Shown: positions 1 through 14,572 of the stretch, piece after piece | How positions within the stretch are numbered: position 1 is the stretch's first letter | Layout of the letters: each line of letters begins with the position of its first letter | Virus record (IMG/VR): IMGVR_UViG_3300036949_000060 | Strand: one strand, 5' to 3' | From: an uncultured virus (IMG/VR IMGVR_UViG_3300036949_000060) | Taxonomy: Duplodnaviria; Heunggongvirae; Uroviricota; Caudoviricetes | Length of the DNA: 20,000 nt | Program-made: the position numbers and the translations under genes | The notes under the pieces: generated by a model | What the model saw: only the letters and a program-made list of their open reading frames with translations | What the model was told of the DNA's origin: nothing | Database searches by the model: none

Positions 1-42
1 ATGGGATTCCGATGTGTTGTGGAAATGAATATAAAGAGAATG

Positions 43-78
43 AAAAGAGCCCTCGTACCTAAGTACGGGGGCCTTTTT
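43..78. terminator. Probable bidirectional intrinsic terminator closing the minus-strand late/accessory region
   Basis: Stem GCCCTCGTAC (49-58), loop CTAA, stem GTACGGGGGC (63-72) with one G-U pair on the + strand; flanked by AAAAG on the left and TTTTT (74-78) on the right; about 70 bp past the stop of the last minus-strand gene. Confidence 0.75.
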
Positions 79-148
79 CAATGAGTAAGGTAGGCTTCTG
101 CATTCGCTGTTCGTGATTATTGTAGCATTTCACTTACCGGAATGCAAC

Positions 149-595
149 CTACATTTCATTTGCAATCTGCTGTAACTTCTGCTTGATCTGATCGTTGGGC
201 GCGTCATTCATAAGCTGGGTCAGCTCGGATTCAAAGTCGCCTTCCATGCTGTACCCATCGTCCATGCTGTAATCGTCCATGCTATATCCGTCGCGCGGAT
301 AGCGATCTCTTGAGTATCTATCCCTTGAATATCTACCCATGCTGTCACGTCTCGCATTACGACCTCTACCTCTTGCCTCGGAATAACCGCCATCGCGGGA
401 ATAATAACGATTGCGAGAATAGCCATCCATGCTATATCCGCCATTCATCATTTCTTCAGACTTGAGGAGATTCTTTTTTGCATGAGCGAGAGTGTCCATA
501 TACTGAACCTCAGTCATAGAGAGCTTTCCGCCCTTTTCTGCCTTGCGCTCAAGATCGTCGAGCTCGTCACAGATAAATTCTATGAGTTTGTGCAT
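149..595 (-). CDS. Hypothetical phage protein (148 aa) with helical termini and a central Arg/Tyr/Ser/Asp low-complexity repeat
   Basis: ORF; start moved to ATG at 595 (MHKLIEF) because AGAAAGGAGA lies at 601-610; centre has repeated YS(R/M)D motifs. Confidence 0.8.
   Translation of the reverse strand: MHKLIEFICDELDDLERKAEKGGKLSMTEVQYMDTLAHAKKNLLKSEEMMNGGYSMDGYSRNRYYSRDGGYSEARGRGRNARRDSMGRYSRDRYSRDRYPRDGYSMDDYSMDDGYSMEGDFESELTQLMNDAPNDQIKQKLQQIANEM
243..435 (-). repeat. Degenerate coding tandem repeats (YSMD/YSRD units)
   Basis: TCCATGCT at 243, 261, 276 and 426 on the + strand; protein reads GYSMDGYSRNRYYSRDGGYSE...RYSRDRYSRDRYPRDGYSMDDYSMDDGYSME. Confidence 0.7.
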
Positions 596-609
596 AGCGT
601 TCTCCTTTC

Positions 610-1065
610 TCACGCTGTTCTCTCAACAGTAATAGAAGCACCTCTTCTAACTGTGATTGAAGGTGTTGGTGTAGTGGTAGGATCATCTTCTGTGCCATCG
701 AAGTAAATTCCCGACACAGAGACACAACAGCCACAAGGAACTGTAACGGGAATCTCGGTGTTGATATGTCCGTATTCCTCAACAGCCTGTGGCGTGAAGA
801 TTGCTATGCTTTCGGGGACTATCACACCATTTATCGTGATTCCGATAGCAATGGGAGTGACCTCGCCACCCTCGGGAATCTGAACATTCGCCTGTACCCT
901 TACATTGTATCTTGCGAATCTGCCGGATGTGCTACCTTTCAGATTAAGAACCCCTACCGCAAGAGGAACTACATTTCCTGTGTTGCAAGGGATAGAAACC
1001 GCGCTGAATGGTATCGTGCCATTAAGGGCAACTAACGCATCGCTCGTTGTTACATATTCTGCCAT
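610..1065 (-). CDS. All-beta protein (151 aa), possibly a BclA C-terminal/C1q-like jelly roll
   Basis: RBS AGGAGGT (1071-1077) overlaps the upstream stop; alternating hydrophobic strands (NGTIPF, GVLNLKG, RYNVRVQANV, ASITVER); VPCGCC motif. The fold call is by eye. Confidence 0.7.
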   Translation of the reverse strand: MAEYVTTSDALVALNGTIPFSAVSIPCNTGNVVPLAVGVLNLKGSTSGRFARYNVRVQANVQIPEGGEVTPIAIGITINGVIVPESIAIFTPQAVEEYGHINTEIPVTVPCGCCVSVSGIYFDGTEDDPTTTPTPSITVRRGASITVERTA

Positions 1066-1076
1066 AGCACACCTCC

Positions 1077-1946
1077 TTAATTCATAAAGGTATTTCCGCT
1101 ACATCCGCATCCACCGTTGCAAGTAAAGATAGGGGTTCTGCCGTACACGGGGGTTGAAGGAACAGGGCAGTTGGAAAGTCTGTTATAGAGCTGATCGACT
1201 TCATCACTGAATCCCTGAGAGATAAACGCGTTCTGAGCAGTCTGAGACTCGCGAAGGGTAGCCATGTTAAGCTGCTGGCGAAGCTGCGCGATGGTATCAT
1301 TCTTAGCATCCAGTTCAAGGGAGCAGAGCTTATCGAGAATAGCCTGAGTGCCCTTGTTCTGAGAGTCGATGATATCACGGGTGTTATTTGCGTCAGCAAA
1401 TCTTGTAGCATTAGCCTCGTTCTGAACGATGTTCTGAGTCTGACAGGTAGCAAGTCTGTTATCGCAGCAGCACTGAGCAAGCTGAGACTGAACAGAATTG
1501 AATCCCTGATTCATCGCGGTCTGTCCGGCAAATGCGGTCTGCATATTGGCGATCTGTCTTGCGTTTGCGCCCTGTTCTACTCCGGCAAAGCCGTTGGCAA
1601 GAGCCATCTGAGTGTCGGAACAGCAGTTGCAAAGCTGGGTTGACAAAGAAGAAATGCCGTCGCGGATTCCGGTAATGCCGTCATTAATCATCGCATCCCT
1701 GAAGCCGTTGTTGGTATTAGTCATAATGTTCTGCTGTCCGTTTGCGAGCCAAGGATAGTCACCGCCAAAACCGCCGCCGAAGCCGCCGTTTCCGCCCCAT
1801 CCATTGTTGCCCCATCCGAGAAGAAGCAGCAAAATGATCCAAGCCCAATCGCCGCCGAATGCGTTTCCGAATCCTCCCCCGTTTCCGCCGGTAGGAGAAA
1901 CAAGCATAGTTGCGCCAATTCCGCCGTTTTCGTCTGTTAAAGCCAT
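1077..1946 (-). CDS. Hypothetical protein (289 aa): Gly-rich N-terminus with a hydrophobic segment, Gln/Asn/Ala coiled coil with Cys clusters, Cys-rich tail
   Basis: Start moved to ATG at 1946 (MALTDENG) with AGGAGGT at 1953-1959; motifs GGDWAWIILLLLLGWGNNGWGG, QLCNCCSD, QLAQCCCD and CNGGCGC. Confidence 0.85.
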   Translation of the reverse strand: MALTDENGGIGATMLVSPTGGNGGGFGNAFGGDWAWIILLLLLGWGNNGWGGNGGFGGGFGGDYPWLANGQQNIMTNTNNGFRDAMINDGITGIRDGISSLSTQLCNCCSDTQMALANGFAGVEQGANARQIANMQTAFAGQTAMNQGFNSVQSQLAQCCCDNRLATCQTQNIVQNEANATRFADANNTRDIIDSQNKGTQAILDKLCSLELDAKNDTIAQLRQQLNMATLRESQTAQNAFISQGFSDEVDQLYNRLSNCPVPSTPVYGRTPIFTCNGGCGCSGNTFMN

Positions 1947-1956
1947 AATTTTACCT

Positions 1957-2028
1957 CCTATAACTTTTGTTAGGTTAGGGAATACACTCGTACGCTGTGT
2001 AGTCCGTATATAAGGCACGTCTGCCTTA
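1957..2028 (-). promoter_or_regulatory. Putative structured 5' leader with tandem hairpins upstream of the 289-aa gene
   Basis: Perfect 7-bp inverted repeat TAAGGCA-4nt-TGCCTTA (2011-2028); imperfect stem GGACTACAC...GTGTATTCC (2005-1979, minus strand); weak third stem near the RBS. Confidence 0.45.
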
Positions 2029-2241
2029 CTTTCTCATAAGTTGCTGTATCATGGGATTGTTTCTCATGCTCATAACCTGATTGATCTGTTGCTGAGAAAC
2101 CTGATTTGTGTTGATAAGATACTGAAGAATGCTGCTCGGGTCGTTCATATCCACATTATTTGGGATATTAAACCGTCTCGACAGCATTTGTAACGGGTTT
2201 TGCCGAAATTGCTGATACATTGAAAAGATATCATTCATCAT
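2026..2241 (-). CDS. Small Gln/Asn/Met-rich helical hypothetical protein (71 aa)
   Basis: ORF overlapping the upstream stop; repeated NP motifs (QNPLQML, NDPSSIL, NNPMIQQL). Confidence 0.75.
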   Translation of the reverse strand: MMNDIFSMYQQFRQNPLQMLSRRFNIPNNVDMNDPSSILQYLINTNQVSQQQINQVMSMRNNPMIQQLMRK

Positions 2242-2725
2242 CGTCGTCCTCGTCTTTTGGAACCTTCTTAGGTGCGGGTTTGGTTATGCTCTTGAGCTTT
2301 TCTTTAATTGCTTTTACATCAGCCTTAATCGCCTCAATTTCGCTTATTAATCCCTCAAGTGTATCATTTATTGCCTTGTTATCGTTTCTATCGTCCTCGG
2401 GCGAATTTGAGGGTTCCTCGGGTTCCTCTTTGACAAGCCTATACTTTTCAATCTTGGGTGAGTCCAACTGAGAAAAGCCCATTGATTTTTCCATGACATA
2501 CGGCTTACCCTCAATCTTGAAAGTGACACAATTTCCGAGAGCAACCGGATATGTGCGGACATATTCTTCATTTGGTGCTGTCAGGAACCCGCCGTTCTGA
2601 ATCTGCTGAATAGGCTGTTGAGGAATCTGCTGAGCCATCTGCTGAGGCATCTGCTGCTGCATCTGCTGCTGAGGCTGATATCCGTACTGCTGAGGATATT
2701 GATAAGGGCTGTAAAAGTTAGGCAT
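2231..2725 (-). CDS. Hypothetical protein (164 aa): Q/P/Y-rich disordered N-terminus, small globular domain, C-terminal coiled coil and acidic tail
   Basis: RBS AAAGGAG at 2731-2737; YQYPQQYGYQPQQQMQQQMPQQMAQQIPQQ; heptad pattern in LEGLISEIEAIKADVKAIKEKL. Confidence 0.8.
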   Translation of the reverse strand: MPNFYSPYQYPQQYGYQPQQQMQQQMPQQMAQQIPQQPIQQIQNGGFLTAPNEEYVRTYPVALGNCVTFKIEGKPYVMEKSMGFSQLDSPKIEKYRLVKEEPEEPSNSPEDDRNDNKAINDTLEGLISEIEAIKADVKAIKEKLKSITKPAPKKVPKDEDDDDE

Positions 2726-2727
2726 GT

Positions 2728-3105
2728 TTACTCCTTTCTATACCATACATACACGGGAATTTCTCTTGAAGAATCCCAACTATCATATATATCGCCGTCT
2801 ATCGCACAAACGGTATGCGTTCCAGTCCCCAAAACAAATACCCCTTTAGGATTATCTCGGCAGAAATCACTTATTGTGTAACAATTCGGGCATAAGTTGG
2901 GGATAGTTTTGCGGTAGAAACCTCTTTCACGAAGAACAGATCCCCAAACAGAATCCGCATGAGGCATATCGCCCATAGCAAGGCCGTTTGAACAAATTTC
3001 AATATAGGCATCCTCCCATTCTATATTAAGTGCTTTTGAGACGGCTCTAATAGCGCAGTCGTCTACACTTCTTCCTGTTGGGTTGGGGTTATAATGAATC
3101 CACAT
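2728..3105 (-). CDS. Putative papain-fold (C39-like) cysteine peptidase/hydrolase (125 aa)
   Basis: DCAIRA (Cys at a helix start), THTVCAIDG (His) and YDSWDS (Asp) in papain-like order; extra CPNC motif; AAGGAG upstream at 3114-3119. Confidence 0.65.
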   Translation of the reverse strand: MWIHYNPNPTGRSVDDCAIRAVSKALNIEWEDAYIEICSNGLAMGDMPHADSVWGSVLRERGFYRKTIPNLCPNCYTISDFCRDNPKGVFVLGTGTHTVCAIDGDIYDSWDSSREIPVYVWYRKE

Positions 3106-3132
3106 TTCCTTATCTCCTTGTATTAAATTACA

Positions 3133-3180
3133 ACACTAAAAAAGCACCCTCACAATGATGTGAAAGTGCATTTTTAGTGT
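3133..3180 (-). terminator. Intrinsic terminator within a longer inverted repeat, after the HTH gene
   Basis: Minus-strand RNA GCACUUUCACA-UCAU-UGUGAGGGUGC followed by UUUUUU (11-bp stem with two G-U pairs); outer arms ACACTAAAAA/TTTTTAGTGT also pair. Confidence 0.75.
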
Positions 3181-3191
3181 AAGTTATGTGA

Positions 3192-3404
3192 TTATAGATG
3201 TTTAAAGACTTTTTCTTCGCATTTATAGACTATGGCTTTTGTTTGCCGAACAGACAGGCCAAATTCTTCGCTAAGCTTTTCAAAGGTGATACCGTCAAAC
3301 AATCTTCTACGCAAAATAGCTCTATCGCGCTCTGCATTCTTGCCAATTATCCATTCTGCAATCAGTGAGTCTAACTCTGACTTTGAAACATTCTCGGGGA
3401 TCAT
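3192..3404 (-). CDS. Small sigma-70 region-4-like helix-turn-helix DNA-binding protein (70 aa)
   Basis: ERDRAILRRRLFDGITFEKLSEEFGLSVRQTKAIV matches the sigma-4/GerE-type HTH pattern; too short to contain sigma region 2. Confidence 0.75.
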   Translation of the reverse strand: MIPENVSKSELDSLIAEWIIGKNAERDRAILRRRLFDGITFEKLSEEFGLSVRQTKAIVYKCEEKVFKHL

Positions 3405-3538
3405 CGCTTTTTTGCTCCACGGCCTACATTCCGCACGCGCCCTGTCCCTTTACAATGAGGGCAAGTGTGATAGCCGGAATTACCGCCCACTCGTCTTGTT
3501 CTGCGTCTCGTCCTCACTCTCTGTGTCACTCTCGCCAT
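3401..3538 (-). CDS. Arg-rich microprotein (45 aa) with CPHCKGTG motif; not in the ORF track
   Basis: Manual translation MARVTQRVRTRRRTRRVGGNSGYHTCPHCKGTGRVRNVGRGAKKR*; AGGAG 6 nt before the ATG; its TGA overlaps the HTH start codon (ATGA, 3401-3404). Confidence 0.7.
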   Translation of the reverse strand: MARVTQRVRTRRRTRRVGGNSGYHTCPHCKGTGRVRNVGRGAKKR

Positions 3539-3797
3539 GATAATCTCCTATGCCTATGACCGTAAAATCGCCCTCGGCCTCAATTTCCTGTTCAACCTCT
3601 TGCTCGTAGTATTCCCACTGGCTCTCATACCATATCCACATGGCGTTGGTTCCCACAAGTAAGACTATGAGCAGTATACACATTATCCACAATCTCTTAA
3701 TGGTGAGTGATTGCCTATCTGCCATAGCCTCAAACACACAAAAAGGGATTGTGGAATTGTCTTTACCATTCATTGTCGGAATCCTTGTTGCTGGCAT
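3480..3797 (-). CDS. Single-pass membrane protein with acidic C-terminus (start may be 3773)
   Basis: Hydrophobic segment LWIMCILLIVLLVGTNAMWIWY followed by a Glu/Asp-rich tail; overlaps the holin stop. Confidence 0.7.
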   Translation of the reverse strand: MPATRIPTMNGKDNSTIPFCVFEAMADRQSLTIKRLWIMCILLIVLLVGTNAMWIWYESQWEYYEQEVEQEIEAEGDFTVIGIGDYHGESDTESEDETQNKTSGR

Positions 3798-3975
3798 CTA
3801 CAAGTCCCTCGCCAATTACATACCCGATTACGGTAGCTCCAGCCATGATAAGCGATGCTACCTGAGCAGCTTCATTCTCAGTCCCGCCGAGAGCAACGAT
3901 CAGAAGCGAAACGAAAGCACATATACTGACCCAAAGTTTTCTTGATGTAAGTTTTCTTTTCCAATCAATCTTCAT
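3763..3975 (-). CDS. Putative holin (70 aa, two TM segments)
   Basis: Basic N-terminus MKIDWKRKLTSRKLW typical of small Gram-positive phage holins, two hydrophobic helices, strong RBS AGAGGAGG, lysis-cassette position. Confidence 0.75.
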   Translation of the reverse strand: MKIDWKRKLTSRKLWVSICAFVSLLIVALGGTENEAAQVASLIMAGATVIGYVIGEGLVDASNKDSDNEW

Positions 3976-3987
3976 GGTATTCCTCCT

Positions 3988-4323
3988 CTACTGTAAACCC
4001 AATTTACATGCAATATAGCCGATTACGATGGAAACAACCGATATGACAATGTGTGATACCACTTTTCGCCATATCTCGCCATCGCGATCTTCCAATTTCC
4101 TGATTCTGTCGCTTTGATCGTTGAGGTTTTCGCCCTGCCTCGCCTGTTCGCGGACCATGTGCTCCATGTTGGTAGCAAGTCTTTCGACAGACGTGGCGAT
4201 TGATGAAATAGACTCAATAGCTAACTCAAGTTTTGAAATCCGGTGGTTTTGTCTGTTATCTTCTTCTTCCATTCGCTTAACAAACTCCTCGTGGACATCC
4301 TTGCGTACATACTCGTCTGACAT
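3988..4323 (-). CDS. XhlA-like coiled-coil protein with a C-terminal membrane anchor (lysis accessory/holin-like)
   Basis: Start moved to ATG at 4323 (GAGGTG upstream); coiled coil RISKLELAIESISSIATSVERLATNMEHM; C-terminal TM VVSHIVISVVSIVIGYIA; directly follows the endolysin. Confidence 0.7.
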   Translation of the reverse strand: MSDEYVRKDVHEEFVKRMEEEDNRQNHRISKLELAIESISSIATSVERLATNMEHMVREQARQGENLNDQSDRIRKLEDRDGEIWRKVVSHIVISVVSIVIGYIACKLGLQ

Positions 4324-4333
4324 TTCCCACACC

Positions 4334-5848
4334 TCATACAATCTTAATATACTGGCCTATCTGTATTAAATTCGGGTTTTTAATCCCGTTTGCCTCGGCA
4401 AGTGCTTTAACGGTAGTGTTATATCGCTTTGCTATGGCTGAAAGAGTATCTCCGCGCTTTACTGTAATACCCAAGATGGTTTTTGCCGTCTCGGTCACTA
4501 CATACGGCTTGCCGGTCTCTTTACGCTGAGCCACTATTTCATCGACCCTCTTTTGGACGGCTGAATAATCAAATCCGGCGTTTGTGAGCCTTATGCGCCT
4601 AAGAGGATTGTTGCCCCAAAGTCCGGCAAGAACCTCATTGGCTATCTGATCTACCGAAGCCTTTGCCTGAACGGGGACTATAACCTCCTGTTTAGGTAAA
4701 TCCGGTTGATCGACCCACTCAATAAATATTTCATCCTGATCTACGACAGTTCCAGCAATCTTAGGATCACGGATGTAGTTTACAGACCCGCCGTACTGCC
4801 AAATCTCAATAAGAGAAATGCTATTAAGATGCGGCTCTTTGTTTGAATACCTTGCAACCCAATGAGGGAAAAGAACAAGTTTATTATCGTCAAATCGGCT
4901 ATTAAAATGGCTTTCACTTGTATAGATGCCGCAAGCATATCCGGCGTTTATCATGGTCTGACAGAAGGTTTGGATAATCTCGGTCAGGTGAGTATATCCC
5001 TGATTGAGCATCGCCCCCTCCACATCATAGTAAACATGGGTGATTGCTTTTCCCTGAAGGCACTGTATAAAGAAATTAGCCTCATTGATTGCGTCGGTCG
5101 TGCTGAATGCGTTTCCAAAAAAGTAAGCCCCGATCTTCCATGCTCCGGCCCTTGCCTGAGTGTAGAAATTCTCAAACTGAGAATCTTTATAAGGCACCTT
5201 ATTTGAGGTATCAGCTCCGCCCGCCTTTATAATAACATACGAAAAGCCCTCATTCCACGCTTTTTTTAAATCAAATCCATTTTGCCATCTTGAAACGTCT
5301 ATCCCCTTGGGGTGAGTCGGAATAGAGGGGGTCTCGTTTGAGTATTCTACCCATGGCAGAAGGCCGTGATCCGTCCATGATCTTCCCTTAGAAGTTGAGC
5401 CTTTATAAAGATACCTCTCACCTTTTTCATTGACGTAGGTATACTGAACCTTGCTGGCCCAGTCTGAAGTACACTCTATAACGTTGAATACCTCATTCTG
5501 ATAGGTGAAATCACCGACGTATATGCCGGAATGCTCATGGCCTTTATCAGAGATATAGAGGTATGTTCCGGCTTTTTTAAGCTGCGTAAAGTCTTTTGAT
5601 CTTTCCGTGCATTGTAAAAGCAAGTGATATCCGTCAACATCGCCCGTAGGAAAATCTTTCGGGCTTATGTAAGAGCCTATGACTCCTGTGGGAGACCAAT
5701 TTGCAAGGACGCATTTTATGAGATTCCAACAATCAAACGAGTACCTTTTGCCGTCATAATATCCGCAATTATACGGAAATTTGTTGTTATAGTAATTGGG
5801 TACATCATGGGCCAGCTTTAACTTTTCGATAAAATCTTTAACAAGCAT
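4334..5848 (-). CDS. Endolysin: NlpC/P60-CHAP-like domain + GH25 muramidase + CW_7 (Cpl-7) repeat + LysM
   Basis: FDCWNLIK...HSGIY (Cys/His); KGIDVSRWQ...YYDVE...WVARY...IWQY...VDQD (GH25); [15 protein letters not shown]...VQKRVDE (CW_7); [38 protein letters not shown] (LysM); RBS GAGGAGG. Confidence 0.92.
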
Positions 5849-6085
5849 TTAGCCCTCCTCGGTGTTTCTTTCGTATCGGTCTGTTTTGAGCACAAAACCC
5901 GTGTCGTCTATGATCTCCCCGAAAACATATTTGCAATTTGCATCACCCACACATGCCCTCATACTTCCGTACAGATTAATCAGGGCAAGCTCCATAGTGT
6001 TGAAATGGGTAATAGTCCTTTCGTGGGTTTCGTTTGCCATAGTCTTTAATAGTAATACATTCATCGGAGGTTCTTCTTTATTCAA
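5849..6085 (-). CDS. Small hypothetical protein between the tail-tip genes and the endolysin (start uncertain: 6085, 6064 or 6040)
   Basis: Fills the gap exactly, with its stop abutting the endolysin ATG and the endolysin RBS inside its 3' end; no clear RBS of its own. Confidence 0.6.
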   Translation of the reverse strand: MNKEEPPMNVLLLKTMANETHERTITHFNTMELALINLYGSMRACVGDANCKYVFGEIIDDTGFVLKTDRYERNTEEG

Positions 6086-6560
6086 GTTCCAAAGATATTG
6101 TTATCGCTACTTGTTTTCCTTTAGGTACTACGATAGGTTTACCGAGAACGGTACGGGTCAAAAGTACGTTATGTGCTTTGCTGTTTGCTGTTCCCGATTT
6201 TTGAGCGTAGCCGACCTCGGTAATTGTGACATCACTTTCCGAATTGTTCGCATACGTTGTGGTAAGGTTTCGGATATACGGATAAGTTGCACTTGCAACA
6301 AAACCATTGGATACGAACGTTAAAACGGGTGAGTCCACGGCGTTTGATTCCGCTAGTATATAATCGTCTTTATCTTCGGGTGTGTTGCCAAAACCAACAT
6401 CTATATATGAACCCGCAAGGCTATTCGAGAAAAATGCCGCCGCATTGTTGGTATTTGCGACTACAGTTCCACCGCCGTTGTTTTGCGTGACAGTAGTTCC
6501 GTCGAAACCAACAAAACTTTGGTTTGAGAAGTGCCACCTTAAATAATTTGTAAGTTGCAT
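6078..6560 (-). CDS. Putative tail fibre/baseplate-associated beta protein (160 aa)
   Basis: RBS AAGGAGA; motifs IDVGFGNTP..DYIL, TITEVG and LLTRTVLGKPIVV resemble fibre-attachment domains; tail-tip position. Confidence 0.6.
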   Translation of the reverse strand: MQLTNYLRWHFSNQSFVGFDGTTVTQNNGGGTVVANTNNAAAFFSNSLAGSYIDVGFGNTPEDKDDYILAESNAVDSPVLTFVSNGFVASATYPYIRNLTTTYANNSESDVTITEVGYAQKSGTANSKAHNVLLTRTVLGKPIVVPKGKQVAITISLELE

Positions 6561-6570
6561 CGTATCTCCT

Positions 6571-7017
6571 TTACGATATTACATAACTGATCTGCTCTTT
6601 AATCCTTGACCGCATTTGTCCGACCATTGAATACATTTTCATATTTCCACCGCCCCCGCTCGGAGCGTATACGTTTTGGGTTGTTCCGTTGATTGTGATT
6701 TCTGCGATTTTCTCGCCCTTTGTGTATATCTGATTCCATGATACAGAGTCGCCACTACCGCCCCCGCCCGTAACGTTTACAACAGTGCGGTCATTGGCTG
6801 AATCGTCTGTTACCGTAACCCCGCCCGTAAATTGCAATTTTCCCCTTGCGGGCATATCTGTACCCGAGGGGTTTTCTATTGTGTGACCCGCTGAACCGCC
6901 CCCACCCATATTTGAGTCGATATTATCCATGTTGCGGTTATAGCTTTGTAGGAAGTCCCCGAAAGGGTCACTCGGTGCGGGTTTTTCTAATCCGTAGTTG
7001 GGTGTTAAACTTGACAT
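6571..7017 (-). CDS. Short tail fibre/adaptor protein (148 aa)
   Basis: N-terminus LTPNYGLEKP...NRNMDNID resembles phage fibre anchor segments; small beta modules separated by poly-Gly linkers. Confidence 0.65.
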   Translation of the reverse strand: MSSLTPNYGLEKPAPSDPFGDFLQSYNRNMDNIDSNMGGGGSAGHTIENPSGTDMPARGKLQFTGGVTVTDDSANDRTVVNVTGGGGSGDSVSWNQIYTKGEKIAEITINGTTQNVYAPSGGGGNMKMYSMVGQMRSRIKEQISYVIS

Positions 7018-7019
7018 TT

Positions 7020-8090
7020 TTAATACCTCACAAGTCCCGTCTTAAGATTTGACGAATTGCAAACAATCCATTCACCGCTAATCGCTTTGGGTGTCAGATC
7101 ATCGGGTGGGGTTCCTGTGTAAAGCGGGTTAACCTCTTTAAAATCTGTAACAAAAACGCTGTTTGCGATTCTAAAAGTTGCATATAAGCCATCATCACGC
7201 ACGATTGCCCTTTTTGCCAAAATACCGCTATCCATGTTTCCGACTAATTCAAGAGGGACGGGTTTTTCTATGTTGGGCGGTATCTTATACCGTCCGAGTT
7301 TCCAATTTGCATAGATTTTTGTCGGATACCACAAAAAACCATTTACGGGAATTGCTGACACATATCCGACTTTTGAAAAACCATCTGATCCCGATTGACT
7401 TGCGGTTAGTTTAAATACATGAGAGCCGTCTAATACGCTTACTCCGTACACTTTCGCATAATGTGAGAACCATGTAGGCGAGTCATAGGATATAAAATTC
7501 GTATTGTCATACATACCGAGGAACGGTGCACCCAATATCTGTGAACTCGTTACGGTCTGCCCTACGGTATTGACCGCTATTACTTTTGCTGTTGCATTGT
7601 CGGCTATTTCTCCCGCCACAATGTAAACAACATTTCCCGCACGAACCGCCTGTGGTATTCCGAGGTCTAAATCTGTGGCTATCGCCGTTCCGTTCAACGA
7701 AATAGTTTGTAAAATGGTATCGCTTGTAAGGTCAAAGAATACCAATTCATCGTCAGCGTGGTTTTCAACTATTCCTGTGTTTGTGCCTTTAATTCTGACA
7801 AGCCATGATGTGTTGTTGTACGATGTCCCCTGTTTGTATATATTGGCGGGTATCGTGTGTGATACTTCCGTCCACGGTGAAGCCGATGTGTCAAACTTGT
7901 ATAACTTGTCGTCTCTGAAACTTGTTATCCAACAGTATTGACCCGTTTGGTCGAACTCGGCAAAGTCGCAAGGAAAATTCATATAGTCAACATCGGGAAT
8001 TTCACCCGTCCCGCTGTCGCTACGTTCATCGTCATAACCTCGCCCGAATAAAGAAAACCTCATTTTGTATTTTCCGATAGTTCCGCTCAT
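7020..8090 (-). CDS. Beta-rich, possibly beta-propeller tail-tip/receptor-binding protein (about 356 aa)
   Basis: Start at 8090 gives an ATGA overlap with the upstream stop; blade-like motifs KLYKFDT, ELVFFDLTSD, KVIAVNT and KVYGVSVLDG. Confidence 0.6.
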   Translation of the reverse strand: MSGTIGKYKMRFSLFGRGYDDERSDSGTGEIPDVDYMNFPCDFAEFDQTGQYCWITSFRDDKLYKFDTSASPWTEVSHTIPANIYKQGTSYNNTSWLVRIKGTNTGIVENHADDELVFFDLTSDTILQTISLNGTAIATDLDLGIPQAVRAGNVVYIVAGEIADNATAKVIAVNTVGQTVTSSQILGAPFLGMYDNTNFISYDSPTWFSHYAKVYGVSVLDGSHVFKLTASQSGSDGFSKVGYVSAIPVNGFLWYPTKIYANWKLGRYKIPPNIEKPVPLELVGNMDSGILAKRAIVRDDGLYATFRIANSVFVTDFKEVNPLYTGTPPDDLTPKAISGEWIVCNSSNLKTGLVRY

Positions 8091-9580
8091 ACCAAGTCGC
8101 TCCATAAAGTAGGGTTATCCGTGACGGTCATATAAACTTTTGCCGAATGTAAACCCTCTCCGAAAATTGTTTGAGGGTTTGAACAATGAAAGACTCTTTC
8201 TCCTTTAAAAGATTTTTCCTCGGTAACGTTCATTTCGAGGTCGGTTTCATCGTCAACGATAAGCCTTACATTGACCGTGGCTGTGGCACTCAATACCATG
8301 TCAGCCGTTAATATCATTTCTATTTTTTGTGCGAATGTCTTTTGCTCGAACTCTATTTCCGTCACAAGGGTTTCGGTTGAACCGATATTTATCGGTTCGG
8401 TGTTGGTGTTATAAAGTAACCAAAAGTCCTTGTCACCGATCTCCTGTCCGTTGGAATACTCGGAAGAAATACCCTCTAATGTCTTGGTAAATCTATCCTG
8501 GGCATCGGCAAGCAAGGGATTATCTCCGGCACACTTAACCGACATCGTGCCGTCAATCTTATAGGTTATCTCGGTTATCGCTCCGAGGTCGTAGACATCA
8601 GCTTGGTTATCAACGAATGTCAGGACATCGCCAACATCGTAAATAGGGATCAAAGGCATATCCGAGGAATAAGGCACATAATAAACCCCATCCCACGCAT
8701 CTATGATCTCTTGTAAGGCTTCGAGTCTGTTGGTTTGATTCGTGAATTGTAAGAACGGATTCGTTCCCAAATCAAGGACTAATCCACCTGTGTTTGAGTT
8801 GGAGACATACTCTTGTACCCCCTCGTTCTTATACGTTGCATACAAGCCATCATAGGTGGTTCTGAAGTCTGATAGATCAGAAGTATACCTAAAGTTGGAA
8901 TGAACTGTGTCGGCTGAATTAGAACTATAAGAGCCTATATACAAATATCCATCTCTGCCGATGTAGGCATATCCACCCAAATAAGCTGTGATGTACGAAA
9001 GAACATCTCGCCATGTCTTTGCATCTGCCACGGAATCCGCAAAGCCTGTCTTTCTTCGTCCGTTCGGCATGGCTTCAATCTGTGCGGATGTAGTTCCGAG
9101 AGTAACGCCGCAAGCTACGCAAGCTTGTGACAGCCACACATAAGGACTCTGAATCGAGTTATTAAGTGATGCCGAGAAACTGACCGCATCGAACTTGGTC
9201 ATGTTGTCATAAGCTTTAATCGTGATGTGGTCGAGTGCCTGGTTCGCTTCACTTATCGTGAAGATTCCCATAGGGATGACATCTGCGGCACCGTCTATGG
9301 AAAAGCTTAACGAAACTTCTCCGTTATAGAGTTCATATCTCGACACAGCCGGAAGTACAACTTCAAGGGATAAGGTGGATGCGTAAGCTGTTCCAACATT
9401 AAGGCTCTGCGATGAAATGGATCGTGTGATTGACCCTGAAACTATCTTTCCGTTTGCCGAGTCCTTATCCGCATCAAAAGCATAAGTGACACCACCAACT
9501 GTTGTGATAGTGCCACTCCACTTCATGTGCCTGGTATTCGATTTTATTTTTGTGAGAAAATCTGCCGATGCTGAATACAT
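8087..9580 (-). CDS. Tail-tip hub (Tal-like) protein (497 aa)
   Basis: Follows the Dit-like gene; motifs IPMGIFTISE, ITIKAYDNM, YIGRDGYL and YDVGDVLT are typical of siphophage tail hub proteins. Confidence 0.7.
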   Translation of the reverse strand: MYSASADFLTKIKSNTRHMKWSGTITTVGGVTYAFDADKDSANGKIVSGSITRSISSQSLNVGTAYASTLSLEVVLPAVSRYELYNGEVSLSFSIDGAADVIPMGIFTISEANQALDHITIKAYDNMTKFDAVSFSASLNNSIQSPYVWLSQACVACGVTLGTTSAQIEAMPNGRRKTGFADSVADAKTWRDVLSYITAYLGGYAYIGRDGYLYIGSYSSNSADTVHSNFRYTSDLSDFRTTYDGLYATYKNEGVQEYVSNSNTGGLVLDLGTNPFLQFTNQTNRLEALQEIIDAWDGVYYVPYSSDMPLIPIYDVGDVLTFVDNQADVYDLGAITEITYKIDGTMSVKCAGDNPLLADAQDRFTKTLEGISSEYSNGQEIGDKDFWLLYNTNTEPINIGSTETLVTEIEFEQKTFAQKIEMILTADMVLSATATVNVRLIVDDETDLEMNVTEEKSFKGERVFHCSNPQTIFGEGLHSAKVYMTVTDNPTLWSDLV

Positions 9581-9942
9581 TAGTACGCTGTCACCTCAAA
9601 CGATACATCCCAATGTGTTTCTGTGCCGTTGTCTTTAATAAGTTCAAAGGACAAGTTCTGTATAAATCCGCCAAAGGTCGCTTCTGCTAATGTCGCAGGA
9701 GAATAATAAGATATCGTCACGCTCTGACCCGTGACATAATACTGCTGAATCTTCTGATACCATGTTGAGTTTATGGTAGAGGACACAGACAGATGGGGAA
9801 CTCCCAACCGCTTTATATCACGCTGAATAGTTCCCGCTTCTGTCTCTTTTACTGTTTCCTTGTTCTGCAAGGTGAGATTATAACTCCCTTTGGTGAGGGG
9901 GAAGTAATCTGTATTAAACTTTAATTTGACTTTTCTGTTCAT
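9580..9942 (-). CDS. Distal tail (Dit-like) protein (120 aa)
   Basis: Immediately after the tape measure gene with TAATG coupling; ETEAGTIQRDIKR and C-terminal WDVSFEVTAY pattern. Confidence 0.65.
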   Translation of the reverse strand: MNRKVKLKFNTDYFPLTKGSYNLTLQNKETVKETEAGTIQRDIKRLGVPHLSVSSTINSTWYQKIQQYYVTGQSVTISYYSPATLAEATFGGFIQNLSFELIKDNGTETHWDVSFEVTAY

Positions 9943-11894
9943 TATCTACCCCCACTAACCAAAGCGTGCCTCTGCTGTGCATTGAGAATGATCGTGTCTA
10001 ACCTTTCCTGTCCGATATAAACAGGAATTACTATGTCACCGGTTTCGGAATTGGTATTCTGGCCAATCAATCCGTAAAGTGTTTCATTCGGATCCGCTAT
10101 CGCTGAATAATTCGGTGCTGCCTGAACAGTGCTGAAGTCTTCAGCTATCGTTCCCGTTACAGCCCCTATCGCATCGGTGATGAGGTTCATGTTTTCTTTA
10201 ACACCTGATGCGAACAGTTCCATCATGTCCGGTGCGTATGTATGGAAATTCGAAAGAGGTCCTTCTTCGGGTTCGGAGAATCCCAAGAGGCTCTTTATCG
10301 TACTTGCCAGATCTGTGACAGTGCTCTTCAGTTTTTCCCACTTAGCCTTAATGCCATCGATAAAGTTATCGATCAGATCTTTGCCCCAGTCCTTAGCAGC
10401 TTCGACCTTTTCCATGAATCCGTCTTTGACCGACTGAACAAGTTCTGCACCTGTAGTGACCAGCTGACCGATTACCATCAGCACGCCTTCTATCAGCTTA
10501 AATATGAGCTCTGCTCCGGCTTCAAGTATCAACGGAGCCGCCTGAATGAGGGCACTCAACAGATTCTTGACTATCTCAGGAGCTTTTTCTATCAGCTTAG
10601 GCAGTGCCCTGATGAGGCCTTCCGCAAGGGCTATGATCAGCTGAAGCGCTGCTTCAACGAGCCGGACTAATGTATCAGGATCCGTGAGCTTATCAACGAT
10701 GGTAAGCACCACGTCAACAATGGCAGGAATCAGTGTAGGCAAGGCCTGTATGAGACCATCTGCCAATGCAAGGATCAGCTGTAATCCGAGATCTATCAGC
10801 ATGGGGAGCATGCTGAGTATCGTTTCTATGATCATGTTGAAGAGGTCCGGCAATATTTCAACTATTACACTCAGTATCTCGGGAAGTGCCGCGACTAAAG
10901 CCTGCAGCAGGCCAGAAGTTGCTTCTATCAGGGGCGGCAGAATCTGCTGGAACATGGCAGGAAGCTTCTCCGTGATTATAGGTACAATCATTGGAAGTGC
11001 ATTTGCAATTCCCTGCAGTGCATTTAATATCGTAGGAATCAGATTATCAAGCGCTGTCGCTCCAGTCTGAACCACGTTGTTTATAAGCAAACCAAGGTCT
11101 GCGTTCGGATCAGCAAAGCCTGTTACCAAATTACCCCAAGCCGCCTTGACGGATGCCACAGATCCCGAGATGGTGCTTCCCGCTTCTTCTGCGGTAGCGC
11201 CGGCAATGTTCATGTTCTCCTGTACGATGTGGATAGCTTCGACAACATCCGCAAAGTTGTTAATATCAAGGGAGCCTTCGATATAGCCTTCCATTTCTTC
11301 GGCATCACGCAGGAGCCTTTCCATCTCTTCTTTTGTACCGCCGTAACCGAGTTTAAGGTTATCGAGCATGGTGAAGTTTTGCTTTGCAAATCCGGCATAA
11401 GCATTCTGAATGGATTCCATTGAGGTACCCATTCGGTTTGCATTATCCGCCATGTCGGTGATAGCTTCATCGGCATATGCCGCCGCTTGCCATGCGTTAT
11501 CCCCAAGCGATGATGTGAGGGATGCCGCAAAGCCTGTGACGGTTTCCATGTAGTCATTTGCTGAAAGTCCCGCTGTTGCGAATGCGTTGGCCGCATTTGC
11601 CATGACTTCATCTGCGGTATCTCCGAAAAGAACTTCAACACCACCGACAAGCTGTTCATAATCTGCAAAGGATGCAGTCGCGGCTGTTGTTAAAGCAGTA
11701 GTTCCGGCAGCGGCTGCGCCTACAGCCTTCACCGCTATTCCACTGAGGGCCTTGGCTCCTGCACCGAAGGCAGAGGCGAAAGCACTTCCTCCACTTGTTC
11801 CGGCAGAACCCATTGCCTCTTCGATTTCGCCGGTCATACCCTCCATCGAAGGCCTGATCTGTAAATAAGCTTCACCTATTGTGTTGTTCGGCAT
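9942..11894 (-). CDS. Tape measure protein (650 aa)
   Basis: N-terminal IGEAYLQIRPS; Ala/Gly-rich helices; YEQLVGGVE..F and GFAKQNFTMLDNLKLGYGGTKEEMERLL motifs; Pro-punctuated amphipathic repeats; follows the tail chaperones. Confidence 0.93.
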   Translation of the reverse strand: MPNNTIGEAYLQIRPSMEGMTGEIEEAMGSAGTSGGSAFASAFGAGAKALSGIAVKAVGAAAAGTTALTTAATASFADYEQLVGGVEVLFGDTADEVMANAANAFATAGLSANDYMETVTGFAASLTSSLGDNAWQAAAYADEAITDMADNANRMGTSMESIQNAYAGFAKQNFTMLDNLKLGYGGTKEEMERLLRDAEEMEGYIEGSLDINNFADVVEAIHIVQENMNIAGATAEEAGSTISGSVASVKAAWGNLVTGFADPNADLGLLINNVVQTGATALDNLIPTILNALQGIANALPMIVPIITEKLPAMFQQILPPLIEATSGLLQALVAALPEILSVIVEILPDLFNMIIETILSMLPMLIDLGLQLILALADGLIQALPTLIPAIVDVVLTIVDKLTDPDTLVRLVEAALQLIIALAEGLIRALPKLIEKAPEIVKNLLSALIQAAPLILEAGAELIFKLIEGVLMVIGQLVTTGAELVQSVKDGFMEKVEAAKDWGKDLIDNFIDGIKAKWEKLKSTVTDLASTIKSLLGFSEPEEGPLSNFHTYAPDMMELFASGVKENMNLITDAIGAVTGTIAEDFSTVQAAPNYSAIADPNETLYGLIGQNTNSETGDIVIPVYIGQERLDTIILNAQQRHALVSGGR

Positions 11895-12261
11895 TGATTA
11901 TTTTCTCCCAAGCTTCGTTGAACTCATCTGCGGTAAGGAACACTTCCGCTTCTTCTCTCTTTTCTTCTGTCAATGCTTTAAGGATTGACGGAGGTTGATT
12001 TCTATTTTTTGACCCGTCTTTTGTCTTTGACCAGTGTAGCCAGGCTAACTCGTCTACCATTCGGGCCGTAAGTATCTGTTCCAATGTGAGCTTGCTGTTT
12101 GCGAGAGCCAGTTTGACTCTGGAATCATCTCTTAATCCAAAACAAAGAACAGCCACCAGCTCCGGTGACTGTTCTCTGTAGTTGAATAAGTGATAGGTTT
12201 CTGCAAGATCACAAATCAGTGAATCCTCACACACCGCAATGCAGTGCGCGAGGAATATCAG
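11872..12261 (-). CDS. Tail assembly chaperone, C-terminal (T-like) frame, probably expressed by -1 frameshift
   Basis: The frame stays open from the slippery site (CTG at 12261: LIFLAHCIAVCEDSLICDLAETY...) to 11872; the GTG at 12234 has no RBS. Confidence 0.8.
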   Translation of the reverse strand: MIFLAHCIAVCEDSLICDLAETYHLFNYREQSPELVAVLCFGLRDDSRVKLALANSKLTLEQILTARMVDELAWLHWSKTKDGSKNRNQPPSILKALTEEKREEAEVFLTADEFNEAWEKIINAEQHNR

Positions 12262-12533
12262 TTTTTTATATTCTTCTTTTCTTCGATGATCTCCTTCGCG
12301 GTATTCATTACCACATCAGACGGAACAAAACCATCATTCTGGCTTGCGATGTGTTCCATCAGCCTATTAAGCTGTTCTTTTCCGAACATAAGCTCGACCA
12401 TCCTCTGAGCTGCAAGGACCTTCTCTACATTAGAACCGCTTTCTGTCTTTGCGGCCTCAGATGTAAAGCGCCAGTCAGTCAGTATTCTTTCATCTATTTC
12501 GTACTCAAATCCACTTTTTGTGATACCCTGCAT
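12258..12533 (-). CDS. Tail assembly chaperone (G-like, 91 aa)
   Basis: Lies between the major tail and tape measure genes; RBS AAGGAGAGAGG; ends ATA AAA AAC TGA. Confidence 0.85.
   Translation of the reverse strand: MQGITKSGFEYEIDERILTDWRFTSEAAKTESGSNVEKVLAAQRMVELMFGKEQLNRLMEHIASQNDGFVPSDVVMNTAKEIIEEKKNIKN
12261..12267 (-). other. Programmed -1 ribosomal frameshift heptamer A AAA AAC
   Basis: X XXY YYZ heptamer in the correct phase directly before the chaperone stop; the -1 frame joins the downstream ORF. Confidence 0.85.
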
Positions 12534-12556
12534 ATCCTCTCTCCTTACTGGTCCCT

Positions 12557-13120
12557 TTATACAGAGGGAACCGTTGCTGTGATGTACTCGTAATGATATC
12601 CGCCGGCGGTATCAGGTACATCGGTGATCGTGATGTTGTAGCCGATAGCCTCATCATCCTTATAGGTGATCTCACCGAGCTCAGAAATGGTTCCGTTAGG
12701 AACTACGATTCTCTTTGCTCTGCCGCCCTTAAGGATCATGTCGAAAACCCAACATCCGGAAGTCATCTCTTCTGCGGTTGCCTTGATCGCCAGATTTCCG
12801 TTTCCATCTACGGTTACATTGGCTGAACCGTAAATAGTCTTAAGAACGTCTACATTCAAGGACTCGATAAGAGTGAATGCGAAAGTGTCGGGTCTGTCGG
12901 TCTGAAGATTGAGAACGGTATCACCGCCCCAAGCTTTGACAGAATCGCTCTCGGGTGAGTTGTTGTTTACGACACCATCTTCGGAAACATATCCGAGCTC
13001 AGCAAATGCCGCATCGAGTGCAGCTGTTGCGCTGGTAGGAAGTGTGGTTCCGAGAGGAGCCCAGTGAACAGCTCCGCCGACTTTAGGCTTACCTACTGAT
13101 ACTTTTGTTGCATCGGGCAT
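12557..13120 (-). CDS. Major tail (tube) protein (187 aa)
   Basis: Start moved to ATG at 13120 (AAAGGAGG upstream); motifs APLGTTLPT, LGYVSEDGV, VKAWGGDTV and FTLIESLN are typical of siphophage tail tubes. Confidence 0.9.
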   Translation of the reverse strand: MPDATKVSVGKPKVGGAVHWAPLGTTLPTSATAALDAAFAELGYVSEDGVVNNNSPESDSVKAWGGDTVLNLQTDRPDTFAFTLIESLNVDVLKTIYGSANVTVDGNGNLAIKATAEEMTSGCWVFDMILKGGRAKRIVVPNGTISELGEITYKDDEAIGYNITITDVPDTAGGYHYEYITATVPSV

Positions 13121-13133
13121 AATTAAGCCTCCT

Positions 13134-13472
13134 TTAATAAAACAGATTATAGTAACTACGATAGCGGTACCGCTTAAGTTCAGTGTCGGTGTTATCATTA
13201 CCGCCGCCGATCTCACAGGTTATGTCTGTCGTTTCGTGAAGCTTATCCATTGCTGTTCTGAGTTTTTCATCAAGAACAGCCGCTGCGTACTTGCTCGGAC
13301 CGTAGGATCTGAACTCGAGTGTCACAGCATCAATGCGGTTAGTTCTTCCAATGTCTACACGCTGGAAGATTATGAACGATTCCGGGACCTGCTTCGGTAT
13401 CTCCAAGACCACAGGGATGTTATCCTCTGCAAATTCCGCATCAAGAAAGTTTTTCACTCTTTCTTCAATCAT
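13134..13472 (-). CDS. Tail terminator/completion protein
   Basis: Directly upstream of the major tail gene; AAAGGTGA before ATG 13472; motifs SYGPSKYAA and YRYRSYYNL. Confidence 0.7.
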   Translation of the reverse strand: MIEERVKNFLDAEFAEDNIPVVLEIPKQVPESFIIFQRVDIGRTNRIDAVTLEFRSYGPSKYAAAVLDEKLRTAMDKLHETTDITCEIGGGNDNTDTELKRYRYRSYYNLFY

Positions 13473-13650
13473 TGTCATCACCTTTGTCTTTCCGCACTAT
13501 TACGTGACATCTATCGAAACCCACGAAACTTGAATCTACTTCTCCGTGCCTTTCAGCTTCATTCAACAAAGCATCCATCATGAACTGAGATTTTAAAACC
13601 TCCACCACTCCGGAGCTCTTCAATTTGACTTTAACCTTCGAGTTCTTCAA
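13465..13650 (-). CDS. Short head-tail/neck protein (HK97 gp10-position gene, 61 aa)
   Basis: Overlaps both neighbours; KVKLKSSGVVEVLKS resembles N-termini at this position; TTG start. Confidence 0.55.
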   Translation of the reverse strand: MKNSKVKVKLKSSGVVEVLKSQFMMDALLNEAERHGEVDSSFVGFDRCHVIVRKDKGDDND

Positions 13651-14343: not shown

Positions 14344-14350
14344 AACTGCC

Positions 14351-14572
14351 TCATTTCTTGGTTTTCTTTGTCTTCTTAGGAGCCTCGGTCTTGGGCTCTT
14401 CTTTTTCCTCCAGTTGCACCGGTGCAACTTCGGACTTTTCGACCTGCTTCACTTCGGACTTGGGTTTTTCCAAGTCAGCGGCGAGCTTATGGCCCGCCGC
14501 CTTGTATTCTTCAACTCGGTCATCCGCTACCCAAAACTCGATTCCTGTGAAGCAGTTGTTCATCTTTATCAT
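14351..14572 (-). CDS. Small capsid-adjacent hypothetical protein (73 aa) with Lys/Glu/Pro-rich tail
   Basis: TGATG overlap with the capsid stop at 14572; TGIEFWVADDRVEEYKAAGHKL followed by a charged disordered tail. Confidence 0.7.
   Translation of the reverse strand: MIKMNNCFTGIEFWVADDRVEEYKAAGHKLAADLEKPKSEVKQVEKSEVAPVQLEEKEEPKTEAPKKTKKTKK

Follow-up and report, generated by a model that had tools for sequence, protein, structure and literature searches.

A recurrent accessory gene cassette of gut and rumen phages with a predicted papain-like peptidase and a predicted TNF/C1q-type protein

We analyzed a 20,000-nucleotide (nt) stretch of DNA from an uncultured tailed virus (IMG/VR record IMGVR_UViG_3300036949_000060; Caudoviricetes), hereafter the window, and in particular eight genes at positions 149-3538, which we call g1 to g8 (Table 1). 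All eight open reading frames (ORFs) are on the minus strand, directly 3' of the holin and endolysin genes. An earlier note, made from the sequence alone, had described them as a self-contained module of unknown function and had suggested that they might build a disulfide-cross-linked fiber or coat on the surface of the host cell or spore, or a proteolytically matured membrane-active protein. We found that the region is very probably one copy of a portable accessory cassette carried by tailed phages from gut and rumen anaerobes. The cassette is common, movable, unstudied, and not tied to spores.

Results

The six genes g3 to g8 recur as an ordered block in many other phages. A scan of IMG/VR located relatives of g6 at 176 places, 80 of which were retained as loci, and a scan of species-representative genome contigs located them at 98 places, 79 of which were retained. 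From these loci we built cassette hidden Markov models (HMMs) of the eight proteins and of u1, a small protein encoded upstream, and we searched the models against all six-frame ORFs. The g6 model recovered its gene in 159 of 159 loci. For gene order, we considered the 122 of 159 loci with full flanks, defined as at least 1.7 kb before and at least 1.3 kb after g6. The order g3-g4-g5-g6-g7-g8 was present in 94 of the 122, and another 9 had the same order with one or two members undetected. The rearranged order g6-g7-(g8)-g3 was seen in 15, and g6 alone or g6 with g7 only in the last 4. HMM matches to the less conspicuous members were also frequent among the full-flank loci (g8 in 106, g5 in 102, and g4 in 96). 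When one rearranged locus (L086) was inspected by eye, it had retained g4-, g5-, and g8-like genes with g3 shifted to the end; therefore, both layouts retain the same six components. The earlier note had proposed a self-contained module that follows the lysis genes in other phages, and it had made synteny the test of that proposal. The scan shows that the genes are indeed syntenic and that the module recurs behind lysis genes in other gut and rumen phages.

The two genes ahead of this block behave differently from it. The g1/g2 control unit is optional and more loosely associated than the six-gene core: among 105 canonical loci, 56 have g2 no more than 1.5 kb upstream of g3, and g1 was HMM-positive in 21 of 161 loci. 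Likewise, u1 lies within 2.5 kb upstream in 52 of the 105 canonical loci.

Existing resources hold pieces of the cassette. By sequence, g3, g4, g6, and g7 belong to PHROG 3754, 21718, 16490, and 20016, respectively, all of them families of unknown function, and neither the PHROG libraries nor the Pfam entry DUF7841, likewise without an assigned function, records that these families make up one cassette. Since four of the proteins match PHROG families (E values of 4e-9 to 3e-27) and all eight have relatives in the same order, the genes are far beyond chance ORFs. In a large protein collection, g6 relatives formed more than 8,000 clusters at 90% identity, none of them meaningfully named. Protein Atlas look-ups of g6 and g4 returned unnamed viral clusters only, and we found no paper in the literature describing the cassette. 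Because of the more than 8,000 g6 clusters and the shared order in most of the 159 loci, we regard the cassette as one of the commoner conserved gene blocks of the gut and rumen virome.

A sister record (G001) gave direct evidence that the cassette is accessory. This record is 100% identical to window positions 5859-20000, which cover all structural genes in the window, and it diverges exactly at the lysis region, below position 5859, at a mosaic junction spanning 5849-5860. Beyond the junction, the sister phage encodes a different holin and a 260-amino-acid (aa) lysin, and immediately after these come an integrase fragment and an XRE-type repressor on the other strand. It has no match to window positions 1-3600, i.e., no cassette. 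Therefore, the same virion is built without the cassette, which is dispensable for building the virion of this phage.

The genomic setting of the cassette was variable. A recognizable peptidoglycan hydrolase was encoded upstream in 17 of 38 sampled loci. These enzymes were of the GH25, CHAP, M23, NlpC/P60, M15, amidase_2, and glucosaminidase types and mostly carried CW_7, LysM, choline-binding, or PG_binding_1 modules. The remaining annotated upstream ORFs in the 38 loci were mostly tail-fiber-like, and many upstream ORFs had no match. Downstream, a manual tally of annotations over 55 sampled loci gave 27 loci with replication or recombination genes, 8 with lysogeny genes, 2 with a terminase, 2 with glycosyltransferases, and 1 each with a head scaffold gene (next to a rearranged cassette), an endolysin, and a host gene; 13 were uninformative. 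In the locus with the scaffold gene (L133), the rearranged cassette has a minor capsid gene on one side and the scaffold gene on the other; in two other loci (L159 and L131), the cassette lies immediately before the terminase. GT2-type glycosyltransferase genes follow rearranged cassettes in two loci (L123:8333-10622, where a DUF4422 gene is also present, and L086:9510-10547). Their products could modify a cassette protein.

Two cultured systems carry the cassette. Butyrivibrio virus Ceridwen carries u1, g2, and the complete six-gene core 3' of its endolysin gene. Its description reports isolation on Butyrivibrio fibrisolvens and growth, on strain DSM 3071, that is lytic only, and the passages covered here assign no function to the cassette genes (PMC7372960). 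The genus Butyrivibrio is described as non-spore-forming (PMC6249431). A prophage of Vescimonas fastidiosa MM35 carries a complete cassette at the prophage end, between a holin-amidase pair and host genes, and the one match in a plasmid collection was a prophage in a Vescimonas megaplasmid or chromid. Host labels from metagenome-assembled genomes (Bacteroidales, Prevotella, Spirochaetaceae, and Alphaproteobacteria) were not used as host evidence, because phage contigs are easily misbinned and because the upstream endolysins have wall-binding domains of the Gram-positive type.

Close relatives of the window were also present in RNA libraries. One run (X8) yielded contigs at least 99% identical to pieces of g6, g4, the XhlA-like gene, and structural genes, and two bovine gut metatranscriptome runs held relatives of cassette and lysis pieces at 90 to 99% identity. 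Such contigs show presence only and speak to neither strand, level, nor transcription. A further run from the same study as X8 (X11) had near-identical contigs only for the part shared with the sister phage (window positions 6066-11792), while X8 also covered the cassette and lysis genes (1286-4453). The two runs would fit the presence of both phage variants in that habitat.

We then considered what the six core genes encode. The reading of g3 as a papain-like Cys-His-Asp peptidase is well supported, because a papain-like fold is predicted and the triad is conserved. The AlphaFold2 model has a predicted local distance difference test score (pLDDT) of 95, and Asp16-Cys17, His97, and Asp108 are invariant in an alignment of 45 sequences (A1), in line with the cysteine peptidase that the earlier note had placed in the module. 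In an exhaustive structural alignment, the top matches were papain-like peptidases only. The highest VIA-align Z scores were 7.2 for AvrPphB, 7.1 for the C39 domain of PCAT (6mpz), and 6.9 for both Josephin and ComA (5xe8); all matches fell below 8, a range that may reflect only a common fold. Foldseek gave no match below an E value of 0.04, and g3 matched no Pfam family, including Peptidase_C39 and C39_2. Fused or longer relatives were not found, which is weak evidence.

With the C39 double-glycine leader peptidases (ComA and PCAT1), AvrPphB, and Josephin, g3 is predicted to share a domain of about 125 to 150 residues and the Cys-His-Asp order, with the Z scores of 6.9 to 7.2 extending over 100 to 114 residues. 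A further likeness to the C39 peptidases is the conserved Gly-Gly that precedes a hydrophobic segment in the neighboring g6. Unlike those enzymes, g3 is not fused to an ABC transporter, and its candidate substrate would be a 289-aa protein rather than a short peptide. No ABC transporter gene is present in the window's cassette. Tsamsa-like Bacillus phages, Geobacillus phage GBK2, and Lak phages carry relatives of g3 that stand alone among early or accessory genes. In Bacillus phage Izhevsk (L165), the g3-type gene lies between Ser/Thr kinase and lipoprotein genes, two genes upstream of an Ocr-like gene, and in GBK2 (L166) it lies three genes upstream of RecE/RecT.

The AlphaFold2 model of g7 (pLDDT, 94.3) was closest in Foldseek to the C-terminal domain (CTD) of BclA (3tyj; E = 2.7e-7; TM scores of 0.68 and 0.75; also 1wck, E = 7.1e-7), followed by F-BclA and by the BxpB and ExsFA structures (8d02, E = 2.8e-6; 9h3d, 3.7e-6; 7r1m, 9.7e-6). 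Other structural matches were C1q/TNF ligands, the TNF-like lectin BC2L-C, and phage spike knobs. In BFVD, the best matches were unnamed phage proteins of about 135 aa, and after them viral fiber tips labeled as C1q, collagen, or BclA. On the model, the BclA-like domain named in the earlier note was therefore recovered. A profile search against 1.84 billion cluster representatives retrieved 692 relatives of g7; the 150 matches listed were 68 to 287 aa long, almost all of them 100 to 160 aa, and nearly all stand-alone. Cys27 and Cys113-Cys114 are invariant, and mean column identity is 68% across unrelated phage backbones (alignment A2).

At the sequence level, the link to exosporium proteins was absent. 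The window's g7 matched no Pfam family at an E value of 0.1 or less, none of 45 family members matched BclA_C at 1 or less, and the exosporium leader model TIGR03720 matched none of nine proteins scanned. The 151 residues contain no collagen GXY repeats, and longer or fused relatives were not found, although this last point is weak evidence. What g7 shares with the exosporium hub proteins ExsF/ExsFA/BxpB and with the CTDs of BclA and F-BclA, proteins of the Bacillus cereus group that anchor the exosporium nap and appendages, is the TNF/C1q-type jelly roll (3tyj, 1wck, 9h38, 8d02, and 7r1m), and ExsF, like g7, is a stand-alone TNF-like protein of about 150 to 170 residues. Sequence identity to BclA and ExsF is only 12 to 16%, and BclA has a collagen stalk and an exosporium leader, neither of which is found in g7. 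ExsF trimers dock N-terminal leader peptides in the clefts between subunits (PMC12357932), which provides a precedent for a stand-alone TNF-like hub. The leader docked by ExsF is the Pro-rich N terminus of a fiber protein, and ExsF itself belongs to the basal layer of the exosporium, a location that is implausible for a protein in Butyrivibrio. A 2011 mBio paper on isopeptide attachment of BclA is listed as retracted and carries no weight here. The logic of a hub with a long partner is alike in the exosporium and in the cassette, but the partner here would be the Cys-clustered, helical g6 with its hydrophobic head, and the cassette genes are phage genes that also occur with non-spore-forming hosts. 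A complex prediction for three copies of g7 and three of g6 residues 200-289 scored 0.02 against a mark of 0.32; the fold of the g6 part is itself uncertain, and the result is evidence neither way.

The signature protein g6 is conserved at both ends. Its N terminus (MALTD..) is conserved, and a 13-residue hydrophobic segment is bounded by Gly-rich flanks. F30, G31, G32, D33, and W36, just before the hydrophobic run, are each at least 90% conserved, and the region ahead of this FGG site is rich in Gly and Pro. Residues 66-260 form a 195-residue proline-free stretch with Cys clusters (C106, C108-109, C159-161, C168, and C208). The C-terminal tail, CPVPxTPVYGRTPIFTC..GCGC, is near-invariant across unrelated phage backbones (alignment A3). 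In one sibling locus (L085:6480-7415), a g6 that is 99% identical over residues 1-159 is split at the CCC motif, just behind ..QSQLAQC, by an insert of roughly 0.9 kb with a 214-aa GIY-YIG-type endonuclease ORF and a match to the group I intron family RF00028 (40.5 bits; E = 1.4e-8; below the gathering score of 50). Group I introns are usual in expressed, conserved genes. The window's own g6 is uninterrupted.

By composition, g4, g5, and g8 are low-complexity or prion-like proteins (P/Q/Y-rich, Q/N-rich, and RG/YS-rich, respectively) with short conserved cores. In g4, a Pro/Gln/Tyr-rich N terminus accompanies a small conserved core of beta type (NYPVALGNxVTFK..KTMGFSQLD), and the C-terminal part comprises an acidic linker, an amphipathic helix, and a Lys-rich/acidic tail. 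The g5 motif is QNPxQxLSQRFNIPQN..DPNxIIQHLLNTGQVSQxQVNQ. In g8, helical termini enclose an Arg/Gly/Ser/Tyr-rich middle with the conserved core SYARGRGxNARRDSMGRYS; no Pfam, PHROG, or NCBIfam family matched this protein. In 1 of the 38 sampled loci (L043:2878-5055), a gene for a 725-aa CotH kinase domain protein (E = 1.9e-30) lies just upstream of the cassette, a neighbor worth noting beside the conserved RRDSxGRYS motif of g8.

For g2, the earlier note had proposed a helix-turn-helix (HTH) protein and had pointed to sigma-4/GerE-type HTH regulators of late sporulation. The protein resembles sigma-70 region 4, with scores below the curated cutoffs (Pfam Sigma70_r4, E = 1.8e-4, 21.4 bits against 24.1; NCBIfam sigma70-ECF, E = 6.9e-5, 22.5 bits against 42.9), and no GerE match was obtained. 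Profile searches of alignments A1, A2, and A3 against PDB chains returned nothing significant (glutaredoxin, E = 0.12; carbonic anhydrase, 0.52; Med21, 0.004). PADLOC gave no match for g1 to g8 at an E value of 0.01 or less and a weak KwaA match for u1 (E = 0.002).

Diverged relatives of g6 were found in crAss-like phages, where they are 28 to 31% identical and annotated as "spike protein/glycoprotein." These proteins keep the Gly-flanked hydrophobic run and the CCC..DNRL, DKxCxLE, and CPVP motifs. In the crAss-like phage cr1_1 (L002:3913-7251), the g6 homolog lies two genes downstream of a "pholin" gene. Neighboring genes encode a DUF7841 protein whose Arg/Ser/Tyr-rich tail is reminiscent of g8, a beta-rich protein of 136 aa, and a third protein that carries a terminal amphipathic helix and whose single HMM match, a weak one, was to g4 (E = 0.0016 among seven proteins). 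DUF7841 proteins with such a tail accompany g6 in crAss-like phages and also in some variant loci. The composition of this neighborhood suggests that it may be a diverged version of the same cassette.

In the window, the architecture that the earlier note had described, eight co-oriented and tightly coupled genes after the lysis genes, was confirmed by ORF calls that gave the same coordinates (Table 1). Every gene in the first 6 kb is on the minus strand. Stop and start codons overlap at g1/g2 (ATGA), g4/g5, and g7/g8, gaps of 2 nt and 11 nt separate g3/g4 and g6/g7, and AGGAG-type sites precede g1, g3, g4, g6, g7, and g8. The length of g6 is counted from the ATG behind GGAGG, with a longer GTG frame reaching position 2018, and that of g8 from the ATG behind GGAG, with a GTG frame reaching 613. 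At positions 3480-3538, g1 begins before u1 has ended; the two overlap by 59 nt in different frames, and both frames are conserved in relatives.

Table 1. Features at the cassette end of the window
Feature	Coordinates	Strand	Description
g1	3401-3538	-	45 aa; Arg-rich CxxCxGxG zinc-ribbon microprotein; weak DnaJ_CXXCXGXG and anti-TRAP matches
g2	3192-3404	-	70 aa; sigma-70 region-4-type HTH; frequent, not constant, companion of the cassette
g3	2728-3105	-	125 aa; predicted papain-like cysteine peptidase fold; phrog_3754, E 3e-27
g4	2231-2725	-	164 aa; low-complexity; phrog_21718, E 4e-9
g5	2026-2241	-	71 aa; Gln/Asn-rich helical protein
g6	1077-1946	-	289 aa; Cys-clustered signature protein; phrog_16490, E 3e-27
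g7	610-1065	-	151 aa; predicted stand-alone TNF/C1q-type jelly roll (knob/hub); phrog_20016, E 5e-20
g8	149-595	-	148 aa; Arg/Gly/Ser/Tyr-rich low-complexity protein
u1	3480-3797	-	Small single-pass membrane protein upstream of g1/g2; HMM-positive in 68/161 loci
Holin	3763-3975	-	phrog_297; lysis cassette spans 3763-5848
XhlA-like protein	3988-4341	-	phrog_937
Endolysin	4334-5848	-	GH25+CW_7+LysM
Terminator hairpin between g2 and g3	3136-3180	-	Stem 3144-3169, then UUUUUU
Terminator hairpin closing the cassette	43-78	-	Stem 49-72; A-run before, U-rich tail after

Two terminators had been claimed, at 3133-3180 and 43-78, and at both places we found hairpins that were more stable than all 200 shuffled sequences. 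The hairpin at 3144-3169, with its six U residues, has a folding energy of -28 kcal/mol (z, -8.4; matched by 0 of 200 shuffles) and was also reported by a terminator scan. For the hairpin at 49-72, the minus-strand folding energy is -22 kcal/mol (z, -4.9; likewise matched by 0 of 200 shuffles), and the scan reported this site on the plus strand only. Overall, the scan returned 4 terminator-like sites where 4.5 were expected from shuffles, i.e., no excess. Among related loci in which g2 directly precedes g3, a comparable hairpin and T-run were present in 35 of 39 distinct g2-g3 spacers. Therefore, the insulation of the six-gene block is itself conserved, and the terminator proposed to separate g2 from that block is borne out. 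We found no excess of sigma-70-type promoters upstream of g3, where 3 of 66 spacers scored at least 10, against 6% of shuffles. A TG-extended -10-like element lies 20 to 25 nt before the start codon in about 12 loci and is not counted here as shown. An Rfam scan of window positions 1-6000 at an E value of 0.1 or less returned no RNA family.

Discussion

As a whole, we tentatively favor the explanation that a portable accessory cassette directs a late rod-and-knob assembly. Such an assembly, made late with low-complexity partners and with processing by g3, is a possible mechanism that we hold loosely. The cassette would be expressed at the end of the lytic program, and its products would self-assemble inside the infected cell into a rod-and-knob structure. 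The rod would be g6, with its hydrophobic head keeping it in or on a membrane, and trimers of g7 would form the knob or a docking hub in the manner of ExsF and BclA. As assembly partners or matrix, g4, g5, and g8 may complete the structure, and g3 may trim one of the low-complexity proteins or another cassette partner. The parts of the cassette are conserved while backbones and lysins change. Therefore, the target is probably the assembly itself or something universal, such as another cassette protein, a lipid, or the cell wall, rather than a host-specific receptor.

Several observations weigh against this mechanism. The hydrophobic run of g6 has a median of 13 residues, its best 19-mer has a Kyte-Doolittle mean of 1.39, and there is next to no flanking Lys or Arg; a short, uncharged run of this kind makes a classical membrane anchor doubtful. 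A hydrophobic period of 3.5 residues is clear only around residues 85-126. We therefore speak of a helical rod and not of a proven coiled coil, so that of the Cys-clustered coiled coil proposed in the earlier note the Cys clusters stand and the coiled coil does not. Contact between g6 and g7 and cleavage of cassette proteins by g3 are both hypothetical. The divergence of g7 did not co-vary with that of g6 segments (Spearman coefficients of 0.06 to 0.19) or g8 (0.01), and a comparison of g7 with g6 segments, g8, g3, and g5 (-0.11 to 0.21) was uninformative. No signal peptide is visible on reading the sequences of g3, g4, g5, g7, and g8, and export of a surface structure would therefore depend on lysis or on a different route. 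Because relatives of g3 stand alone in other phages, its target may be a host protein rather than the cassette. Finally, the timing of expression is read from gene position only.

The spore reading of the earlier note, in which the module would build or remodel a coat or exosporium layer of the spore, cross-linked by disulfides and regulated as in sporulation, is highly improbable. The predicted fold of g7, so close to BclA-CTD and ExsFA/BxpB, speaks for it, as do Cys-rich and Tyr/Arg/Ser-rich compositions that recall coat proteins and the CotH kinase domain gene upstream of one cassette. However, a full cassette is carried by Ceridwen, a phage of the non-spore-forming genus Butyrivibrio, and a g6 homolog with similar neighbors is found in crAss-like phages. 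The cassette proteins gave no match to the BclA_C, exosporium leader (TIGR03720), GerE, or CotY/ExsY models, and g7 lacks a collagen stalk. The spore link is thus largely refuted, failing on host range and on every sequence-level membership test. The main rival to the rod-and-knob assembly is instead an accessory role in lysis or egress, which we consider unlikely. Here, g3 would remove the 30-odd N-terminal residues of g6 at F-G-G-D, and the Gly-flanked hydrophobic peptide so exposed at the head of the rod would, as infection ends, enter or disrupt membranes much as spanins, disruptins, or class I fusion proteins do. The earlier note's alternative of a proteolytically matured membrane-active protein stays a candidate. 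This idea draws on the position of the cassette right after holin and endolysin genes in the window, in Ceridwen, and in Vescimonas, on the hydrolases upstream of 17 of 38 loci, and on the crAss-like g6 homolog near the "pholin" gene. The strongly conserved F30-to-W36 site, a hydrophobic run that is short and free of flanking positive charges, unlike an ordinary anchor, and a g3 fold that is nearest, among others, to the double-glycine C39 peptidases would also fit. With Rz-type spanins and class I fusion proteins, g6 shares an N-terminal hydrophobic segment, a long helical region, and conserved cysteines; its gene also sits beside the lysis genes. Yet the hydrophobic run is too short and uncharged for a spanin-type anchor. 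Two-component spanins pair a type II membrane protein, which has a coiled coil in the periplasm, with an outer-membrane lipoprotein, whereas g7 and its neighbors show no visible lipobox or signal peptide, and spanins serve diderm hosts, whereas the known cassette hosts, those of the cultured examples, are monoderm-type Clostridia with no outer membrane to breach. The sister phage, moreover, has a complete holin-lysin pair of its own and dispenses with the cassette. The position of the cassette also varies (before the terminase, inside the head module, or before the endolysin), and six genes that include three low-complexity proteins and a TNF-like knob exceed the needs of lysis. Known double-glycine leaders form an amphipathic helix, which the Gly/Pro-rich region ahead of the FGG site of g6 does not resemble.

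A role on the virion seems quite unlikely. The g6 and g7 proteins would form an optional knobbed fiber on capsids or tails that binds glycans, mucus, or plant material, with the other proteins as assembly factors. The genes do lie at the end of the late region, some copies stand beside head or packaging genes (between minor capsid and scaffold genes in L133, just before the terminase in L159 and L131), and TNF/C1q knobs are common at viral fiber tips, with the TNF-like lectin BC2L-C among the matches of g7. But the sister phage has 100% identical structural genes and no cassette, and the cassette moves between unrelated backbones, so that any docking site on the virion would need to be a universal one. 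The cassette is also bounded by terminators of its own, g7 is conserved, unlike receptor-binding tips, which usually vary, and a lipid-free tailed virion offers no obvious place for the hydrophobic head of g6. Exclusion or counterdefense, in which a membrane-associated rod and knob would block superinfection or mask receptors on debris, or in which g3 would cleave a host defense protein or ubiquitin-like conjugate, is very doubtful as well. The cassette is accessory and has a moron-like location between lysis genes and a lysogeny module or prophage end. A g3 relative lies near the Ocr-like gene of phage Izhevsk, among early or accessory genes, and the g3 fold also resembles Josephin-type deubiquitinases and "clippases." Against this, the cassette proteins match no PADLOC family, the cassette is also present in Ceridwen, which is reported from the lytic cycle only, and more of the 55 sampled loci continue into same-strand early genes than into lysogeny genes (27 versus 8).

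If the rod-and-knob assembly were taken to its full extent, the cassette would encode an undescribed apparatus in which a peptidase-matured, fusion-peptide-like rod, a TNF-fold trimer, and three prion-like proteins are membrane active or matrix forming at the end of infection. Gut and rumen phages in their thousands would share it across host phyla, as would crAss-like phages in a diverged version. We regard this larger picture as rather unlikely.

An optional, mobile cassette should give its phages a selectable advantage in the gut and rumen, whether in egress, persistence, adhesion, or exclusion. Two cultured carriers, phage Ceridwen and the prophage of V. fastidiosa MM35, make its role directly testable. 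Finally, the fold that links g7 to exosporium proteins, in phages of hosts without spores, suggests that the ExsF/BclA-type docking module is older and broader than the exosporium.

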